Below are positions 2,561-11,361 of a DNA stretch of 38,158 nt, in pieces. The translations under genes were made by a program, and so were the position numbers. The notes beneath the pieces are model-generated. The model saw only the letters and a list, made by a program, of their open reading frames with translations. It had not been told where the DNA came from and searched no databases. Origin of the DNA: Faecalibacterium prausnitzii (GTDB lineage: Bacteria; Bacillota_I; Bacilli_A; RFN20; CAG-826); assembly GCA_963611905.1 (NCBI GenBank), contig CAVDTI010000109.1, positions 1-38,158 of the forward strand. Direction: 5' to 3'. How positions within the stretch are numbered: position 1 is the stretch's first letter; every line of letters starts with the position of its first letter.

Positions 2561-3457
2561 TTATTTAACGATAGAAGAAACAATACTGTTGTAATAACCC
2601 ATCAACAATTCTAAGAAGTTATTGTTGTAGAACATTTTTCCGATGGTGTAAATCGAATCATCGGATAAAAATAGCATTTGATCAAGCCAATTGTAAATTG
2701 GAGTGTAGCTGCTCAAAGAAACCAACAAGGCAGAAAGCAAGGAAACATCGATAAATCCAATGACTATGCCTAATATTCCACCTAACAGTCTATTCATCGG
2801 TCCGATAACCTTCCATTTATTGATAGCTTTCCCTACAATTTTTGCGATTAATAAGACAATCAAACCTACCGCAAAGATTGCAACAAAACCTATAGCAACA
2901 AAGGTTAAGGACGCCAAAGAACATGATAGGTAATATCCTAAAGATTGGCTTACCCCACTTTCAGGAACGGCGTTGATAACGAAATTACCAACAAACCCTT
3001 TTAAGAAAGAAGGAATGCCGACAGAATTAAGGGCTGTCTCCAATACCGTTAAATCACTTCCAGGAAGAACTGTATTTAAATCATCACGAGTAATAATCCA
3101 TTCCATGGCATTTGTGGAGCCAAATCTGATTTGCACAGCCAATTGAAGAGCGCTATCACCAGATCCAACTGGATTATTCGCTCCTTTTTCCAACAAGAAA
3201 GATAAAAAATTGCTTTGAACTGTATCTCCCCAACCATTTAAAGAATAAATCCAAGTTCCAATCGGTTTTGCCAATAAGTAAGCCAAGAAAAAAACAATAA
3301 TTAAGCCAAAGAGTTTAATTAAGGTATAGACAAATCCCTTACGAATTCCACGAATAAATGCAAACAAAACAATCACGCCGAATGCCAACGATATCCAATC
3401 GAAGCGATAAGTTTGCGAAGATGTAGGAAGAATGTTCATCAAGTAATTCATACTCAA
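2561..3457 (-). CDS. CvpA-family membrane protein with an inserted extracytoplasmic segment
   Basis: The N-terminus FDWISLAFGVIVLFAFIRGIRKGFV... resembles CvpA, with multiple TM helices. The track start at 3457 is TTG; an ATG at 3451 (MNYLMN...) is an equally plausible start. Confidence 0.6.
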   Translation of the reverse strand: MSMNYLMNILPTSSQTYRFDWISLAFGVIVLFAFIRGIRKGFVYTLIKLFGLIIVFFLAYLLAKPIGTWIYSLNGWGDTVQSNFLSFLLEKGANNPVGSGDSALQLAVQIRFGSTNAMEWIITRDDLNTVLPGSDLTVLETALNSVGIPSFLKGFVGNFVINAVPESGVSQSLGYYLSCSLASLTFVAIGFVAIFAVGLIVLLIAKIVGKAINKWKVIGPMNRLLGGILGIVIGFIDVSLLSALLVSLSSYTPIYNWLDQMLFLSDDSIYTIGKMFYNNNFLELLMGYYNSIVSSIVK

Positions 3458-3475
3458 TTATTTAACGACATTTTT

Positions 3476-3508
3476 TGCAAAAAGAAAAGGCTAGGAATGC
3501 CCTAGCCC
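3476..3508 (-). terminator. Rho-independent terminator after the GPH transporter gene
   Basis: On the minus strand GGCTAGG-GCATT-CCTAGCC is followed by TTTTCTTTTT. Confidence 0.75.
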
Positions 3509-3523
3509 TAGGAGGAATTTAAG

Positions 3524-5155
3524 TTAAGCGGTTACTTGTTGAACCTTATCTTCCGCTTGAATATTTTTCTCGTTACGTTTTGCAAGTTCTTCAACCATCA
3601 TCTTCTCTTCTTCTTCAGTGATATGATAGCCAAATTTCATAATCAAATATGAGCCAAGGAACATGGCAATTGTTAAACCAATAATGATGATTCCAAAAAT
3701 TAACAAATTCGCTTTTCCGTCAGCAAAAAGCCCATCGATTTGAGAATTGATGTCACTATTTACTTGTTCTCTAACCGCTTGAGTTGCACCTTCTGGATTG
3801 GAATTAATTGTGGCTTCCGCTTCACCAATAAGTTGGAATATCCCATAAAATCCGCCTGCAAAATAAGCGAAATATCTAATGCCAAGATTTAGCCCTGAAC
3901 CGAGCTTAACATCAAGAGGACGCCAAGCAAAGCAAATCGATTCCTTCCTTTCGCCAAACTTGTATTCGTTATAATCGATAGCATCTTGGAACATAACAAT
4001 CAAAGCGAGATAGAACAAACCAGACGCAGCAAAGAAAATGAACGCAAATATATAGAGAATGATATTTTGCCATCCAACTATATTTGAGGAATTCAAAATC
4101 GGATAACGCCCACTCATAGGGAACCCCAAGAAGAAGAAAGCGAGATAGAAGACGGCAATCAAAACAACCGAGAATAGGAGAATTTGTTTCTTGCTTAGTT
4201 TCTTGGAAATTATTGGATAGAAGGCCTGGGCAGCAATTGTTCCAACAATATAGAAAACAGAAATTGCGGTAGCTATATTTGCTCCATTTGGATAACCATA
4301 AACGAAATAATAGTAATTTGTTCCTACACCAGTAAGAAGACCTTCGGCCGCATAGCAAAGGAACATTGCAATTGCTGCTGCTCTAAGCTCTTTGTTCTTA
4401 ATGACAACCTTGAATAAGTCAAGAATATGAGATTGTTCCGAAACTTCTTCTTGCTTAGGGTCTCTCTTCTTCTCCTTACAAAGAAAGAAAACTAGCGTTT
4501 GAGTTATTAAGAATATCGAAGCAAGTCCAATTGAAGACCAGAGGAACACTTCTTTATATGTTCCTAAATTTCCAGGCCCCAACGTTAAAAGAGCAAAGGA
4601 AATAAATGTGCCAATTGAAGCGGCAATTGTCATCGAAGTAGAGATTTTACCTCTTGTTTTTGCATCATTAGTCAAGGAAGGTAACATTGACCAATAACCA
4701 ATATCGTTCATGGTAAACATTAAATCCCATATGAAATACATGACAATCATGAATGCGACAAATCCCCAACCATGAACTAAGCCAAGCGAAGGAATTACAA
4801 ACATCAGCATTACAGTAATGGCATTTCCGATTGCGCCAATTTCAATCCAAGGACGGAACTTGCCTAGTTTGAATCTAAATTTCTCAATAATGAAACCCAT
4901 GATCGGGTCGTTAATTCCATCCCAAATAAGCGCGATCATCAAAGCGATTGTAATTACACCATATTGAGCTTTAAACGCATCGCCAGTATCTAAAACGCCT
5001 GATGCAAGCGCATATTGGGTAAGAAACGTTCCCACCAATTGATAACAAGCATCACGAAAGATACCAGACCATGGAAAAAGTATCCTTGTAAGTTTAGGAA
5101 CCCTATCACCTTCGTAAGTTCCATTATCAATCATTTTTTGGAATAATTTGCCCAT
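3524..5155 (-). CDS. Glycoside-pentoside-hexuronide (GPH) family sugar:cation symporter (MFS)
   Basis: 543 aa and polytopic. It has the GPH signature region NDPIMGFIIEKFRFKLGKFRPW. SD GGGAGG lies upstream. There is an extra C-terminal TM helix plus a charged tail. Confidence 0.8.
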   Translation of the reverse strand: MGKLFQKMIDNGTYEGDRVPKLTRILFPWSGIFRDACYQLVGTFLTQYALASGVLDTGDAFKAQYGVITIALMIALIWDGINDPIMGFIIEKFRFKLGKFRPWIEIGAIGNAITVMLMFVIPSLGLVHGWGFVAFMIVMYFIWDLMFTMNDIGYWSMLPSLTNDAKTRGKISTSMTIAASIGTFISFALLTLGPGNLGTYKEVFLWSSIGLASIFLITQTLVFFLCKEKKRDPKQEEVSEQSHILDLFKVVIKNKELRAAAIAMFLCYAAEGLLTGVGTNYYYFVYGYPNGANIATAISVFYIVGTIAAQAFYPIISKKLSKKQILLFSVVLIAVFYLAFFFLGFPMSGRYPILNSSNIVGWQNIILYIFAFIFFAASGLFYLALIVMFQDAIDYNEYKFGERKESICFAWRPLDVKLGSGLNLGIRYFAYFAGGFYGIFQLIGEAEATINSNPEGATQAVREQVNSDINSQIDGLFADGKANLLIFGIIIIGLTIAMFLGSYLIMKFGYHITEEEEKMMVEELAKRNEKNIQAEDKVQQVTA

Positions 5156-5216: not shown

Positions 5217-5338
5217 CACTTATTTTTTAAGCATCTTAATTAAACAAAACGAATTCTAGCAATAATTGACAATTTATCATTTTTTTGTAACATTTGTAAT
5301 TTTTTAAAGTTTTTAATTAATTAAACAATAGTTTTTTG

Positions 5339-5344
5339 TATAAT
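5339..5344 (+). promoter_or_regulatory. Candidate -10 box (TATAAT) six nt upstream of the DUF1538 ATG, a leaderless geometry
   Basis: TATAAT-gacttt-ATG with no Shine-Dalgarno sequence. The -35 region is weak (TTAATT/ATTAAT). Confidence 0.4.
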
Positions 5345-5350
5345 GACTTT

Positions 5351-6907
5351 ATGATAAAAAATTTGCTCGATAAACTTAAAGAATCATGTTTCTCTGTTCT
5401 TCCTGTAACAGCAATAGTCTTGATTCTATTTTTCACTCCACTTCTTGATCTTTCAGCAAAGGAGATACTTATTTTTAGCGTCTCGGCAATATTCTTGATA
5501 ATCGGTATTGCTCTCTTCAATGTTGGCGCAGAAATGGCCATGTCTCCGATGGGGGAACAAATAGGTTCATCGCTTATCAAATCAAAGAAAATCAAATTAG
5601 CACTTCTTATCATCTTTTTAATGGGCGTTCTTATCACTATCGCCGAACCTGATTTATCAGTCTTGGCAAACCAAGTTAAAGGTGTTCTTAATGGAACAGT
5701 TTTGATTGTCATGGTTGGTGTTGGCGTTGGCTTGTTCCTAGCGGTTGCAATTTTAAAAATCCTCTTCAAAATCGACCTATCTTACATTTTGATGTTCCTT
5801 TACATGGTTCTTTTTGCACTTGCTTGTTTAGCAATGCTTAGCCCTGAAGGAACAAAGTTCATGGGCCTTGCATTTGACTCTGGCGGAGTTACAACAGGTC
5901 CAATTACCGTTCCATTCATCATGGCGTTAGGACTTGGCGTTGCTCAAACTATTGGTGGTCGTCAAGCAAAGGAAAACTCCTTCGGTCTTGTCGCTTTATG
6001 TTCAATTGGACCTATTTTAGTCGTTCTTGTTTTGAGTATGACAATCACTGGCAATATGAACTATGAATTGCCATCAAGCTACACAGTTCCTGAAAATATT
6101 TGGGTTTATATTGGGCAAACAATGTATGGAAGTCTTAAAGAAGTAGGCCTTGCTTTAGGTTTAATCACAGTTTGCTTCCTTATCATCGAATTGATCTTTA
6201 TCAGACTTCCATTCAAACAACTTCTTCACATTTTTGCTGGTTTAATTTTCACATTGGTTGGCTTAGTCGTTTTCCTTACTGCTGCAACAGTTGGCTTCAT
6301 GCCTGTTGGCTATGCGATCGGAAATTGCCTTGCCAAAGCTGGTGCTCCATGGCTTATTGCAATAGGTTTCATTCTGGGATTCATTGTTGTTTTGGCTGAA
6401 CCTGCAATCCACGTTTTAACAAAGCAAGTCGAAGAGGTCACAATGGGCGGAGTATCAAAGAAATCGATGTTACTAGCCTTATGTATTGGCGTTGGCATCT
6501 CTATTGGTTTGTCAATGGTCCGTATCGTTTTTAATTTCTCTATTCTTTACTATTTAGTCCCTGGATATTTGCTTTCCTTGATGTTGTCTTTCTTTGTCCC
6601 AAAAGTATATACATCAATCGCTTTCGACTCAGGCGGAGTTGCCTCAGGTCCACTTACATCATCTTTCATTTTACCTATGGCTATTGGCGCATGCGTTATG
6701 ATGGCTGGAGGAGACGCAACAACTGAAGCAGCAAAAGCAACCATTCTCCAAGATGGTTTTGGCGTTGTCGCAATGGTTGCTATGACTCCACTTATCGCTA
6801 TTCAAGCACTCGGTTTCAAAGCCGTTATTCAAAATAAACTTCGTGAACGTTCTAGAGCCAAACGTGTTCTTAGCGCGGATGATGAAGAAATTATCATTTT
6901 TAAATAG
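5351..6907 (+). CDS. Duplicated DUF1538-family integral membrane protein (putative permease)
   Basis: Polytopic protein with an internal duplication visible by eye: IAEPDLSVLANQV...AFDSGGVTTGPITVPFIMALGLG versus LAEPAIHVLTKQV...AFDSGGVASGPLTSSFILPMAIG. The track start at 5336 is TTG; the ATG at 5351 is preferred. Confidence 0.75.
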   Translation: MIKNLLDKLKESCFSVLPVTAIVLILFFTPLLDLSAKEILIFSVSAIFLIIGIALFNVGAEMAMSPMGEQIGSSLIKSKKIKLALLIIFLMGVLITIAEPDLSVLANQVKGVLNGTVLIVMVGVGVGLFLAVAILKILFKIDLSYILMFLYMVLFALACLAMLSPEGTKFMGLAFDSGGVTTGPITVPFIMALGLGVAQTIGGRQAKENSFGLVALCSIGPILVVLVLSMTITGNMNYELPSSYTVPENIWVYIGQTMYGSLKEVGLALGLITVCFLIIELIFIRLPFKQLLHIFAGLIFTLVGLVVFLTAATVGFMPVGYAIGNCLAKAGAPWLIAIGFILGFIVVLAEPAIHVLTKQVEEVTMGGVSKKSMLLALCIGVGISIGLSMVRIVFNFSILYYLVPGYLLSLMLSFFVPKVYTSIAFDSGGVASGPLTSSFILPMAIGACVMMAGGDATTEAAKATILQDGFGVVAMVAMTPLIAIQALGFKAVIQNKLRERSRAKRVLSADDEEIIIFK

Positions 6908-6919
6908 AGGACATCTTTT

Positions 6920-7459
6920 ATGAACGAAGGCAAAAAAATAAAAGTCATCAAACAAAGACACGAAGAACTAAAAGATAAAAAGATTGAAGAACTTAAAGGC
7001 AAGGCTGAAGAGTTCAAGGAAAGACGTGAAGAAAAACGTGCGGAAATAAAAGAAAAGCTTCCTACAAACGTTTTGAAAGAAGCGGTTAAAGAGAATAAAT
7101 CAGCTCCTCTTGCTGCGCCTAAGAAGCTTAAAGCATTGTTCACCATCGTCCCAAGAAATAAAGCAGAATTCTATCTCGATATTCTTGAAGGATATGAGGT
7201 TAATATGCAAATGGTACTTTTTGGAACAGGTACCCTTCCAAAAGAGCTTGCAGTTGCTATTCACAGTAACACCGATAAAGCCGTAATCATAAGTGTGGTC
7301 AAAGAAGAGCACGTAAAGTCAATTATGAATGCATATGAAGATAAATATTTTAAATTAAGAAATGGTCAAGGCATTGCTTTCACGATTCCATTCTCAAGCA
7401 TGATCGGAAAAACGTCTTATCAGTTCTTAGCCAATATGGAGGGCAAAGGAAATGAGTGA
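6920..7459 (+). CDS. Divergent PII-like protein with a roughly 70-aa Lys/Glu-rich N-terminal extension
   Basis: 179 aa. The C-terminal roughly 105 aa (LFTIVPRNKAEFYLDILEGYEVNM...GIAFTIPFSS) have a PII/ferredoxin-like beta-alpha-beta pattern. SD AGAGGA lies upstream. It overlaps the next gene by 8 nt. Confidence 0.5.
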   Translation: MNEGKKIKVIKQRHEELKDKKIEELKGKAEEFKERREEKRAEIKEKLPTNVLKEAVKENKSAPLAAPKKLKALFTIVPRNKAEFYLDILEGYEVNMQMVLFGTGTLPKELAVAIHSNTDKAVIISVVKEEHVKSIMNAYEDKYFKLRNGQGIAFTIPFSSMIGKTSYQFLANMEGKGNE

Positions 7460-7817
7460 CAAATTTGAATTAATCGTCTGTATCGTAAACTCTGGATTCT
7501 CTGATTCAGTAATGGATGCAGCCCGTGAAGAAGGAGCCAGAGGCGGAACAAAAATAAACGCTCGTGGCACAGCTAGACAAGAAGCCGAAGCAGCCTTTGG
7601 CATTTCCATCCACCCGGAAAAAGAAATCGTTCTTATTTTAGTTACGGAAGACATCCGCGATGGAATTCTCCATGCTATATATAAGAAGGCAGGCCTCAAT
7701 TCCCCTGCTCAAGCAATTGCCTTCTCTTTACCTGTTGATGAAACAGTCGGACTCGGCAATAAATCCGCTCTTCTAGATGCGGTCAAAGAAGAAAACAAAG
7801 AAACACCTAAAGAATAA
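7452..7817 (+). CDS. P-II family regulator-like protein (the type associated with DUF1538 genes)
   Basis: 121 aa. ELIVCIVNSGFSDSVMDAAREEGARGGTKINARGT...KEIVLILV matches the PII-like proteins usually encoded next to DUF1538 genes. Confidence 0.65.
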   Translation: MSDKFELIVCIVNSGFSDSVMDAAREEGARGGTKINARGTARQEAEAAFGISIHPEKEIVLILVTEDIRDGILHAIYKKAGLNSPAQAIAFSLPVDETVGLGNKSALLDAVKEENKETPKE

Positions 7818-8617
7818 TGCGTCTAGATCTTTTCTTAGCGGCAAAAGGCTACGCAGAAACTCGTAGTAAGGCCTCTCAGTTAATCAAAAACGGTAAAATC
7901 AAAGTCAATAACAAGATAGTCACTAAGAACGGCTATGAAGTTGATGATAAAGACAACGTGGAAATGCTCGAAAATAATGTTCTCGAGTTTGTTTCGCGTG
8001 GTGGGCATAAACTTGCTAAAGCATTACAAGTCTTTAATATAGATTTAAAAAACAAAGTCGTATGCGACATTGGCTCCTCAACCGGCGGTTTTACCGATTG
8101 CTCACTTAAAAATGGTGCGGAAAAAGTCTACGCAATCGATGTAGGCACGTCTCAGCTCCACGTAACTCTAAGAAACAACCCTAAAGTCATAGTGATGGAA
8201 AATACCAACTTCAAAGTCGTTACACCATCTTCCTTTAAAGAGAAAATAGACTATTACGTTTGTGATGTTTCATTCATCTCAATTAGAGCAATTATTGATA
8301 CATTAATTGGTTTCAAAGAAAACTTTGATCTTATATGTTTATTCAAACCTCAATTTGAAGTAGGTCCAGCAAAATTAAATAGCAATGGTGTCGTTAAAAA
8401 GAAAGAATTCCTAAACGAAGCATTATCTTCTTTTCTCTATTACATAAAGAAAAACAATCTCCATGTTTTAGGTTCCTCCTATTCTCCAATTCTTGGTAAC
8501 AAAGAAGGAAACATTGAATTCCTTTTCCATATTTCCACGCAAGGAAAAGATGGAAATATTGATACAAATTCATTAATAGAAGACGCATACAAGCACTTGA
8601 AAAATGTAACAAAATAA
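7817..8617 (+). CDS. tlyA: TlyA-family rRNA (cytidine-2'-O)-methyltransferase
   Basis: 266 aa with an N-terminal S4 domain (MRLDLFLAAKGYAETRSKASQLIKNGKIKVN) and an FtsJ-type methyltransferase motif (DIGSSTGGFTDC). The start overlaps the previous stop (TAATG). Confidence 0.9.
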   Translation: MRLDLFLAAKGYAETRSKASQLIKNGKIKVNNKIVTKNGYEVDDKDNVEMLENNVLEFVSRGGHKLAKALQVFNIDLKNKVVCDIGSSTGGFTDCSLKNGAEKVYAIDVGTSQLHVTLRNNPKVIVMENTNFKVVTPSSFKEKIDYYVCDVSFISIRAIIDTLIGFKENFDLICLFKPQFEVGPAKLNSNGVVKKKEFLNEALSSFLYYIKKNNLHVLGSSYSPILGNKEGNIEFLFHISTQGKDGNIDTNSLIEDAYKHLKNVTK

Positions 8618-8753: not shown

Positions 8754-9620
8754 ATGAAAAAAAGAAATTACTTGTTCTTAGGCATTGCCACTCTAGGAGT
8801 ATTAGCCTCATGTAATGGAAAGGAATTTGATTCGTCTAAGAACATTGCTGTTGTCGTTAGAGAAACTGGCAGCGGCACAAAAGGAGCCTTCCTTGAAATA
8901 TTAGGACTAAAAGGTGCGGATGACCCAAACGGAGCCATAACCGCAACAAGCACTTCGGCAGTTCTTCAAGAAGTCTCTGGAAATCCATATGCTGTTGCCT
9001 ATGATTCATTGGGATATGTTAATGACACCGTTAAAACAGTCAAACTTGATGGTGTTGCACCAACAACCGCCACAATTAAAGATGGCAGTTACGCTTTATC
9101 AAGACCATTAAACGTCATCTACAAAAAAGCAACAGTTGAAGACTCTGCTTTATATACAGACTATTTGAATTTCCTTGGTTCCAAAGAAGCAGAAAGCATG
9201 GCTTCAGAAAATGGATACGTTGCAATTCATGATAGCACTACTTCTTATACAAAAGGAGACAGTTTTGCTAATGGTAAAATCGCGATCTCTGGATCCACTT
9301 CTTTACAACCATTAATGATCAAACTTGCTGCTAAATACATGGAGTATCATCCAGAAGTCAAAGTCGAAGTTTCTGGCGGAGGTTCTGGCACTGGATATAG
9401 CAATGCTGAAAAGGATGTTTCTGCTTTCGGTATGATTTCAGAAGAATTCAACTCTAGCAAAGCTGCAAGTTGCACACCATATACCGTTTGCAAAGATGGA
9501 ATTGCTCTTATCGTTAATCTTAAAAATCCAGTTGAAAGCATCAGCAAAACAGACGTTGCAACAGTCTATAATCCAAAAGCTGAGTCTCCAATCACAACCT
9601 GGTCACAATTGATTAAATAA
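8754..9620 (+). CDS. pstS: Phosphate ABC transporter substrate-binding lipoprotein
   Basis: 288 aa with lipobox LASC. It has a PBP fold with GSGTKGA and SGGGSGTG motifs and is the first gene of the pstSCAB order. Confidence 0.85.
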   Translation: MKKRNYLFLGIATLGVLASCNGKEFDSSKNIAVVVRETGSGTKGAFLEILGLKGADDPNGAITATSTSAVLQEVSGNPYAVAYDSLGYVNDTVKTVKLDGVAPTTATIKDGSYALSRPLNVIYKKATVEDSALYTDYLNFLGSKEAESMASENGYVAIHDSTTSYTKGDSFANGKIAISGSTSLQPLMIKLAAKYMEYHPEVKVEVSGGGSGTGYSNAEKDVSAFGMISEEFNSSKAASCTPYTVCKDGIALIVNLKNPVESISKTDVATVYNPKAESPITTWSQLIK

Positions 9621-10513
9621 TGGTTGGAACAAACAATTTAAAAATAGAAAGAATAAAAGAGGGCGGCGCAAAATGGATATTTTTCCTAGCCGCCTTTTTG
9701 TCGTTGGGACTTCTTACAACAATCATTGCCTTCCTCTTTGCCTATGGTTCACCATTCTTATTTAGATATGGCGTAGGCAATTTCTTGTTCGGAATGAAAT
9801 GGTCTCCTCTTGGAGAGCCACCTTCATTTGGTGTTTGGCCAATGATAGTTGCAACCTTCTATGTCACCATTCTTTCTTCTGTGATCGGTTGCTTATTTGG
9901 CTTATTTGTTGCAATAAGCTTATTTGGCTTCGTCCCAAAAAAACTCGTTAGGCCAATTAGGTCTTTAATCGATCTTCTAGCAGGCATTCCTTCGGTTATT
10001 TATGGTTTATTTGGAATGGTGCTTATCGTTCCTTTTATTCGCGATTATCTTTCTCCGAATGGTGTTGGATATGGAATATTGGCCGCTTCGATAATCCTTT
10101 CGATAATGATTCTTCCAACAATGGTCGGCGTTTCTTTGGACGCACTTAATTCTGTTGATCGCGCCTATTATGAAGGAGCGCTGTCTCTTGGCTCAAGCAA
10201 GCCTCAAGCTGTTTTTAAAATTATGGTTCCTGCCGCAAAAAGAGGAATTCTTGCAGCTAGTGTCTTATCAACCGGAAGAGCATTAGGCGAAACTATGGCA
10301 GTTATTATGGTCATTGGTGGATCAACTCAATTGCCAACTTCATTAACTCAACCAGTAAGAACGTTAACAGCAAATATTGCCATGGGCGCGATGGAATTAA
10401 ACGCAATTCCTGATGCATTAAGCGCTTTATTTTGCTCAGGTGTCGTTTTATTCATCTTCTCTTTATTGCTTAATGTCGTTTTCTCAATCCTAGAAAACGG
10501 AGGGAGGAAATAA
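9620..10513 (+). CDS. pstC: Phosphate ABC transporter permease
   Basis: 297 aa, 6 TM, with the EAA-type loop YEGALSLGSSKPQAVFKIMVPAAKRGI. TAATG overlap with pstS. Confidence 0.9.
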   Translation: MVGTNNLKIERIKEGGAKWIFFLAAFLSLGLLTTIIAFLFAYGSPFLFRYGVGNFLFGMKWSPLGEPPSFGVWPMIVATFYVTILSSVIGCLFGLFVAISLFGFVPKKLVRPIRSLIDLLAGIPSVIYGLFGMVLIVPFIRDYLSPNGVGYGILAASIILSIMILPTMVGVSLDALNSVDRAYYEGALSLGSSKPQAVFKIMVPAAKRGILAASVLSTGRALGETMAVIMVIGGSTQLPTSLTQPVRTLTANIAMGAMELNAIPDALSALFCSGVVLFIFSLLLNVVFSILENGGRK

Positions 10514-11361
10514 TGGTTAATCAAAAAGCATGGTCAAGAAACAGAGGATATTTTACTTCGTTGAAATATGTTTCTTTGTTTTCTCTTTTACTAAGTTTAG
10601 TAGCATTATTTGCTATCATTATTTTCATCTTCATTAGAGGGATTGGAAACATATCATGGCAATTTTTATTTGGAAATTACGGGGAAAACCCCTCTCTTTT
10701 GCCTGCAACGATAGGAACATTGCATTTAATTGCAATCTCGTTGCTACTCGGAATGCCTTTAGGAATTGCTACATCGATTTATTTAGTCGAATATACCTCA
10801 AACTCAAATATCGTTACTAAGATAATTAGGATTGCAATAGAAACTCTGGCTTCAATTCCTTCAATTGTCTATGGCTTATTTGGATATCTAGTATTCGTTG
10901 TTTCTTTAGGTTGGGGTTACACCTTAATGGGCGGAGGAATTACTCTAGCAATCATGATTCTTCCATTAATCGTTAAAAACGTGGAAGAAGCACTAAAAGA
11001 AGTCCCTAACTCCTTAAGAGAAGCCTCATTAGCGCTTGGTGCTAGCAAAATAAGGACAATATTCCATGTCGTTTTGCCTTCTGCCTTACCTGGCATATTA
11101 ACTTCTGTAATCTTATCTATTGGTAGAGTTGTTAGCGAATCCGCAGTCTTGTTGCTCACTGTTGGTATGGTCGTTAACTTAGTACCGGAAAATGCGATGT
11201 CTGCAGGATCATCTTTAGCACTCGACATCTATTACTTTGCATCATTTGGATACATTGGAGAAGCAAGTGCTGCATCACTTACATTACTAATTCTAGTTTT
11301 GTTATTAAATCTGTTGGCTTATGGCCTATCGTACTTTTTTCAAAGGAGGAGAAATAAATAA
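10513..11361 (+). CDS. pstA: Phosphate ABC transporter permease
   Basis: 282 aa with the loop [27 protein letters not shown]. Its start overlaps the pstC stop. Confidence 0.9.

Follow-up and report, generated by a model that had tools for sequence, protein, structure and literature searches.

Few signal processors are as widespread in biology as PII proteins, and to our knowledge not many of their partnerships with transporters are understood mechanistically, those with AmtB and SbtA being among the few. In the GlnK-AmtB and SbtB-SbtA systems a small PII or PII-like protein controls a membrane transporter, and the adjacent paralogues NifI1 and NifI2, which switch off archaeal nitrogenase, provide a precedent for hetero-oligomeric PII proteins. 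Here we analyzed a contig of 38,158 nucleotides (GenBank CAVDTI010000109.1, assembly GCA_963611905.1, Faecalibacterium prausnitzii; hereafter the window, meaning the whole stretch). It carries, between 5336 and 8617 on the forward strand, four head-to-tail open reading frames encoding a fused two-repeat DUF1538 permease, two PII-fold proteins (PIIa and PIIb) and the methyltransferase TlyA. The unit is formed by the first three of these genes, and we consider it probable that they encode a cation/proton transporter of the DUF1538/UmpAB type together with a dedicated, hetero-paired PII module that regulates it.

The sole functional study of the DUF1538 family found in the literature searched concerns UmpAB of Halomonas zhaodongensis, two DUF1538 proteins that form a heterodimer and were reported in 2017 to carry out Na+(Li+,K+)/H+ antiport in Escherichia coli KNabc (PMC5484666). 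The active clone ended at umpB, with no gene downstream, and the terms "PII", "P-II" and "nitrogen regulatory" occur nowhere in that paper (PMC5484666). Because UmpAB is active in E. coli in this form, a PII partner would be regulatory rather than required for transport. An earlier interpretation of this locus, made from its letters and translations (the sequence-only reading), had stated that the substrate of such a pairing was not determined; this needs amending, since antiport by UmpAB has been published at the level of the family (PMC5484666) and NCBIfam models for UmpA and UmpB exist, although the window protein is distant from both. No description of the DUF1538/PII pairing was found in the literature searched (DUF1538, UmpAB, PF07556 and PII-like transporter partnerships), and the pairing, its ligand and its mechanism appear to be unpublished. 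As far as our library shows, the novelty of the partnership therefore stands within that literature, while the theme of a PII protein regulating a transporter is already known from GlnK-AmtB and SbtB-SbtA.

The features of the cassette are as follows.

5266–5293, forward strand: candidate sigma-70 promoter of the operon, TTGACA, 16-nucleotide spacer, TAACAT (consensus scan, 10 of 12 matches)
5336–6907, forward strand: fused two-repeat DUF1538 (UmpAB-family) permease, 523 residues from a TTG start, 518 residues from ATG 5351
6920–7459, forward strand: PIIa, divergent PII-fold protein, 179 residues (predicted structure, Foldseek, hhalign)
7452–7817, forward strand: PIIb, PII-superfamily protein and conserved core partner of DUF1538 permeases, 121 residues
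7817–8617, forward strand: tlyA, TlyA-family ribosomal RNA (rRNA) 2'-O-methyltransferase with S4 and FtsJ domains, 266 residues (Pfam, TIGR00478)

The end of PIIa and the start of PIIb overlap by 8 nucleotides (ATGAGTGA at 7452–7459), and the PIIb stop overlaps the tlyA start by 1 nucleotide (TAATG at 7815–7819); both overlaps can be read directly in the sequence, and they support the tight translational coupling already proposed. From the overlaps, the cassette is likely to be co-transcribed. The permease start is ambiguous. No start codon exists at 5339, where it had previously been placed, and the frame may begin at TTG 5336 or at the in-frame ATG 5351; the latter gives an N-terminus of MIKNLLDKLKE and is the more likely start, because the N-termini of relatives begin at the equivalent position. 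The promoter at 5266–5293 is listed as a candidate only, as sigma-70-like sites in this region are no commoner than in shuffled sequence.

The permease belongs to PF07556 (DUF1538), which it matches in two stretches (E = 1e-123, 411 bits, cut-off 22.6), and its two halves share 28% identity (BLASTP, E = 2e-21). The motif AEPxxxVLxxQV occurs twice (AEPDLSVLANQV at residues 103–114, AEPAIHVLTKQV at 354–365), as does AFDSGGVxxGP (AFDSGGVTTGP at 179–189, AFDSGGVASGP at 429–439). Both the internal duplication and the repeated motifs described in the sequence-only reading are thus borne out. The protein resembles UmpAB in its family, in the AEP and FDSGGVxxGP motifs, and in the alignment of repeat 1 with A-type (UmpA-type) and repeat 2 with B-type (UmpB-type) subunits; it differs in that the subunits are separate in UmpAB and joined in one chain here, and its activity is a prediction. 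Against the NCBIfam UmpA and UmpB models NF041627 and NF041628 it scored 148.2 and 125.6 bits, well short of the 490 and 500 bits required at equivalog level, and equally low scores were obtained for all the proteobacterial and other split homologues that were scored. The Pfam scan returned DUF1538 alone, with no match to Amt (PF00909) or SbtA (PF05982).

The AlphaFold2 model of the permease (mean predicted local distance difference test, pLDDT, 85.5; predicted template modelling score 0.85) contains two broken helices per repeat, with the breaks exactly at the AEP and FDSGG motifs. Four acidic residues at these breaks (E104, D181, E355 and D431) do not vary in alignments of 16 and of 45 sequences. 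The number of lysines and arginines per loop alternates along the chain and flips between equivalent loops of the two repeats: the means for equivalent loops were 0.4 versus 2.9 (L1-2), 3.4 versus 1.1 (L2-3) and 2.2 versus 0.0 (L4-5). The positive-inside bias is strong in A-type subunits and repeat 1, and absent from the same loops of B-type subunits and repeat 2. This charge pattern points to 14 transmembrane helices with both termini in the cytoplasm, probably arranged as two inverted seven-helix repeats; this number replaces the 12 or more of the earlier description. Foldseek revealed no significant fold match in the PDB (best E = 0.04, template modelling score at most 0.21). A C-terminal DDxQIIxF motif was considered as a universal PII docking site and rejected, being confined to the subclade of the window. 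On the fused DUF1538 proteins P0255, P0256, P0257, P0280 and P0322 we observed acidic low-complexity C-terminal tails of about 120–170 residues, with no Pfam or PII match.

Both small proteins that follow the permease have a PII fold, as had been supposed, PIIa by predicted structure and PIIb by comparison of its family profile with solved PII structures. PIIb scored 22.2 bits against Pfam P-II (PF00543; E = 1.9e-4), just below the gathering cut-off of 25, and PIIa has no match to that model, so that neither window protein reaches the cut-off itself. PIIb orthologues elsewhere pass it with 28–49 bits; a homologue search yielded 1,965 proteins, and among the 120 listed the majority carry PF00543, while those with a name go by "P-II family nitrogen regulator". 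A profile built from 66 PIIb orthologues matched 35 PDB sequences at E ≤ 1, nearly all of them PII or PII-like, the best being chain H of 9p1x (NifI1 of a methanogen, within a nitrogenase-PII supercomplex; E = 1.8e-7), followed by archaeal GlnB/GlnK. For PIIa, no match was obtained at the sequence level in Pfam, NCBIfam or PDB sequences. Its AlphaFold2 model (pLDDT 88.9) shows the beta-alpha-beta-beta-alpha-beta core at residues 70–157, and the best 50 Foldseek matches were all PII, CPII, SbtB, PstA, GlnK, PotN or CutA proteins (E from 2e-5 to 5e-4). The PII core extends from about residue 66 to 175 and is preceded by a Lys/Glu-rich extension (residues 1–65, window 6920–7120), of which residues 3–46 are predicted as one long helix (pLDDT about 89–97). 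This extension is exclusive to the nearest relatives, other PIIa proteins having short, variable, basic N-termini. BLASTP found no match between PIIa and PIIb; by profile-profile comparison (hhalign: 98.2%, E = 5e-14), the two are paralogues.

Compared with the canonical ATP/2-oxoglutarate site of GlnB/GlnK (B-loop GDGKIF with K90, together with R101, R103 and Q39), only the beta3 lysine is retained in the two families (K57 in PIIb, K120 in PIIa), along with cleft-lining glycines. The B-loop reads GxGIAF in both paralogues, with isoleucine at the K90 position; glycine occupies the R101 position in both, and no conserved equivalent of R103 is present. The T-loop is about five residues shorter than the canonical one, is partly helical in the PIIa model and carries no conserved arginine plug. 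PIIb is the sole PF00543 match in this genome and in most relatives, which argues against a role in nitrogen control and makes the NCBI name "P-II family nitrogen regulator" probably misleading for these partners. In relatives, the sole canonical PII matches, of 81–87 bits (G002:C26:19291-19605, G012:C84:5568-5882, G013:C51:1235-1549, G016:C14:92492-92806 and G018:C44:18032-18346), lie within open frames of 589–611 residues, which points to fusion of a PII domain with a larger protein, perhaps Amt. One predicted protein of 166 residues (P0021) joins a NUDIX fragment to PIIb.

These features set the cassette beside, and apart from, the described PII systems. As with GlnK-AmtB, a small PII-fold protein is encoded beside a membrane transporter, of which it is presumably the regulator, and the partners are sometimes fused; unlike in that pair, the partner is DUF1538 rather than Amt, there are two divergent paralogues rather than one, the K90, R101 and R103 residues and the arginine-plugged T-loop have given way to the forms described above, and the cassette has no link to nitrogen genes. 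SbtB, which is among the best fold matches of PIIa, shares with it the position of a PII-like regulator dedicated to, and co-transcribed with, one transporter; the differences lie in the family and fold of the transporter, in the hosts (non-photosynthetic gut anaerobes here) and in the paired or tandem arrangement of the PII domains. NifI1 and NifI2 are likewise adjacent PII paralogues, and among solved structures it is NifI1 that the PIIb family matches best in sequence; their target is nitrogenase rather than a membrane transporter, they keep the B-loop GDG(K/R)IF, and nif genes are absent here. PstA/DarA (c-di-AMP, cyclic di-AMP) and CPII (ADP/AMP and bicarbonate) have the same fold, are among the top Foldseek matches of PIIa and have clefts re-tuned to other ligands, but give no match at the sequence level. 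The present module also occurs on alphaproteobacterial plasmids; Alphaproteobacteria usually lack c-di-AMP signalling.

We then compared gene order across genomes. Among same-order relatives, a fused permease was found in 33 of 41 genomes, with PII-like genes 3' of it wherever the downstream sequence sufficed. Of 80 loci in species-representative genomes, about 77 kept the order permease-PIIa-PIIb, the exceptions being two loci cut by a contig end and one with PIIa below threshold; according to their labels, these metagenome-assembled genomes (MAGs) belong to Clostridia, Bacilli, Bacteroidales and Sphaerochaetaceae, among other groups. When the phylum was sampled evenly (299 Bacilli genomes), 67 genomes (about 22%) carried DUF1538, at 68 loci. 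At 67 of these loci the PIIb profile finds a match on the same strand no more than 1.5 kb downstream, the single exception being a 78-residue fragment, whereas only 6 of the 232 DUF1538-free genomes have any match to the profile (Fisher p = 5e-58, uncorrected for phylogeny). Adjacency and co-occurrence are thus conserved for DUF1538/PII as they are for GlnK-AmtB and SbtB-SbtA.

A further 80 metagenome loci were collected with B-type subunits; a homologue search with the N-terminal half of the permease returned mostly truncated fragments of fused proteins. PII domains were found downstream at 64 of the 65 informative loci (at least 800 nucleotides of downstream sequence), split UmpA/UmpB-type loci included, in the following arrangements.

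Fused permease with tandem-fused PII: 38 loci
Split permease with one PII gene: 13 loci, and 4 more with the permease only partly on the contig
Split permease with two PII domains: 7 loci
Fused permease with two separate PII genes, as in the window: 1 locus

Plasmids add further variants: split DUF1538 A and B genes with one PIIb-like gene in the alphaproteobacteria Methylocystis and Chelativorans, and a fused permease with a 222-residue tandem PII in Paraclostridium. Tandem PIIa-PIIb proteins, found at those 38 of 65 metagenome loci and in Paraclostridium, also occur at L014 and L015. In 5 of the best 150 representatives at 50% identity (P0354, P0285, P0366, P0360 and P0378), the C-terminus of the permease is covalently joined to PII, and in P0354 (720 residues) the whole trio forms one chain whose PII domain scores above the Pfam P-II threshold (43 bits). 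The permease profile matched about 4,663 such representatives at E ≤ 0.001, and 1,037 at E ≤ 1e-30. Clustering of flanking open reading frames at the 80 genome and 80 metagenome loci revealed no recurrent neighbour besides the permease and PII genes. The near-obligate co-occurrence and the PIIa-PIIb and permease-PII fusions lend strong support to the suggestion, made in the sequence-only reading, that a PII-type regulator is dedicated to the permease; the "fixed stoichiometric coupling" claimed alongside it does not hold across the family, as the PII part in relatives is a single gene, a pair of genes or a tandem fusion.

The same comparisons bear on tlyA. The encoded protein matches TIGR00478 (235.3 bits, cut-off 185.8) and the Pfam FtsJ and S4 domains, and is a TlyA family member; against the equivalog NF049952 it scored 223 bits, just under the cut-off of 250. 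It had been counted as part of the operon, and one could suppose that all four genes form a single functional operon tying ribosome methylation to ion transport, as the 1-nucleotide overlap and the gene order kept in the nearest relatives (L008–L013 and L031) would allow. TlyA is, however, a housekeeping rRNA methyltransferase (TIGR00478), and tlyA follows the trio solely in those nearest relatives, being absent downstream in 79 of the 80 genome loci and in every more distant relative. The comparative data come close to refuting a four-gene unit, which we regard as highly improbable; because it follows the trio in the nearest relatives only, tlyA is a passenger, co-transcribed locally by an accident of gene order.

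Returning to the three-gene cassette, we propose that it would supply a secondary ion transporter together with its own regulatory module of two paralogous PII-fold proteins. The pairs E104/D181 and E355/D431 at the helix breaks most likely form cation/proton binding sites, and exchange of a monovalent cation (Na+, K+ or Li+) for protons would be the most likely activity by homology to UmpAB. A cation substrate is suggested by the invariant carboxylates at helix breaks, the UmpAB data, occasional P-type ATPase or Kef-type neighbours, and a weak inverse trend with the number of CPA antiporter genes. Among these, P-type cation ATPase-like genes stand beside DUF1538 at four loci (L119, L129, L147 and L183) and Kef/CPA2-type antiporter-like genes at three (L125, L136 and L145), all judged by eye, which gives a weak hint of cation homeostasis. 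CPA antiporter genes are about twice as common in relatives without DUF1538 (2.5 versus 1.24, p = 0.01, uncorrected); a complementary distribution with CPA or NhaC antiporters was rejected, as only this weak trend was seen and both are present in most genomes.

Regulation is likely to be direct, given the near-obligate adjacency, the translational coupling and the fusions. PIIa and PIIb probably form a hetero-oligomer, as the 1:1 tandem fusions and the NifI1/NifI2 precedent suggest (NifI1 being the closest solved relative of PIIb), and this would sit in complex with the permease on the cytoplasmic face, where the basic C-terminal tail of the permease is also predicted to lie. A small-molecule signal bound in the inter-subunit clefts may then switch the transporter off or on, in the manner of GlnK/AmtB and SbtB/SbtA. 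Because the phosphate-binding residues are replaced and the cleft positions kept, the ligand is probably not Mg-ATP/2-oxoglutarate in the canonical binding mode, and because the T-loops are short and partly helical, gating by docking appears likelier than by deep loop insertion. In sum, the folds, the family membership, the fusions, the co-occurrence and the conserved gene order are shown by the present data, and the physical complex, the cation substrate, the ligand and the direction of regulation are inferred from them.

Several findings weigh against this reading. The functional datum comes from a distant homologue, as the equivalog scores show, and the physiological substrate could differ. 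UmpAB antiport itself rests on heterologous complementation and a vesicle assay, and the same laboratory has assigned antiport in this way to several unrelated families. The window genome already encodes a CPA-type antiporter. No riboswitch was found upstream of the cassette by Rfam scan in the window or in 11 related loci, the only hits being a T-box and tRNAs away from that region, and neither a riboswitch nor a regulator gene there hints at the substrate. K90, R101 and R103 are missing from both paralogues, and ligand sensing by PIIa/PIIb is thus putative. Lastly, four small genomes (G067, G308, G329 and G333) keep intact PIIa-PIIb pairs with no DUF1538 match anywhere, and so the pair may have targets besides the permease.

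The first of these points bear on a possible different substrate. With the same transporter and PII architecture, the physiological substrate might be a small metabolite, a divalent metal or an anion (bicarbonate, for instance), UmpAB antiport being a side activity of overexpression. The distance from UmpAB and the resident CPA antiporter are in keeping with this, as is the lack of any PDB structural relative that would fix the mechanism of the permease. So are the cases in which metal-related genes lie close by, namely the PII pair that adjoins a FetAB-like metal exporter in a related genome (L117) and the Chelativorans plasmid locus near a P-type ATPase and a heavy-metal-associated protein; moreover, bicarbonate (SbtA) and polyamine (PotN) systems are among the known partners of PII-like proteins. 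On the other hand, the four carboxylates at the helix breaks, invariant and embedded in the membrane, speak for cations or protons rather than anions, the sole experiment on the family showed exchange of Na+/Li+/K+ against H+ (PMC5484666), and no substrate-specific neighbour gene recurs. We therefore regard a substrate other than a monovalent cation as unlikely.

The orphan pairs bear on a second alternative, in which the permease acts chiefly as a "transceptor", anchoring or sensing at the membrane and sequestering the PII pair as AmtB does GlnK, with the real regulatory output on cytoplasmic targets. They lie directly 3' of an rluA-like pseudouridine synthase gene (L114 4321–5041, L115 4371–5092 and L116 4843–5554, in G329, G308 and G067; also in G333), and in sister genera a permease gene stands between rluA and the PII genes, so that the permease seems to have been lost and the pair retained. 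Such retention implies a role beyond gating, and PII proteins such as GlnB/GlnK typically act on multiple targets. However, the pair is adjacent at 67 of 68 permease loci and a clear orphan pair occurs in only 4 of 299 genomes; covalent permease-PII fusions tether PII to the membrane, which would ill suit a shuttling regulator, and no second conserved partner gene was found. A transceptor role is, in our judgement, distinctly improbable, and transport of a cation, regulated by the PII pair, is the reading we retain.

Going beyond this reading, we tentatively put forward, at somewhat short of even confidence, that DUF1538 with PIIa/PIIb may represent a third archetype, so far undescribed, of membrane transport under PII control. 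Its transporter would be an antiparallel 7+7 pseudo-dimer whose fold the PDB lacks, with a carboxylate on each of four broken helices, and the degenerate nucleotide cleft of its hetero-paired PII module would bind a ligand other than ATP, ADP or 2-oxoglutarate; it would serve cation/pH homeostasis in many anaerobes, with further cytoplasmic targets behind the orphan pairs. The pairing is unusual in joining a permease fold without a solved relative to a PII pair in which the classical effector site is gone. The family is large, with about 4,700 clusters at 50% identity, and extends to many Clostridia and to other phyla, judging from MAG labels and plasmid records. Its ligand and substrate, once known, would add a new input to bacterial ion/pH homeostasis and assign thousands of "DUF" genes of gut anaerobes their first function; with UmpAB active in E. 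coli KNabc, the system lends itself to direct testing.

Some observations concern the surroundings of these genes. In the window, the cassette is flanked at 2561–5155 (reverse strand) and 8754–11361 (forward strand) by genes for a CvpA-like membrane protein, a divergent GPH/MFS_2 sugar-type symporter and a pstS-pstC-pstA phosphate uptake string, none of which recurs beside the cassette in other genomes. On the Chelativorans plasmid (L112 1–671), annotation makes the adjacent genes a P-type ATPase and a heavy-metal-associated protein. At L117 4192–6291 (G190, contig 11), a second, different PII pair (109 and 133 residues) lies immediately upstream of a FetAB-like ATP-binding cassette exporter composed of an ATPase and a UPF0014 permease (PF03649, E = 5e-78), so that service by a PII pair may extend to other ion or metal transporters.

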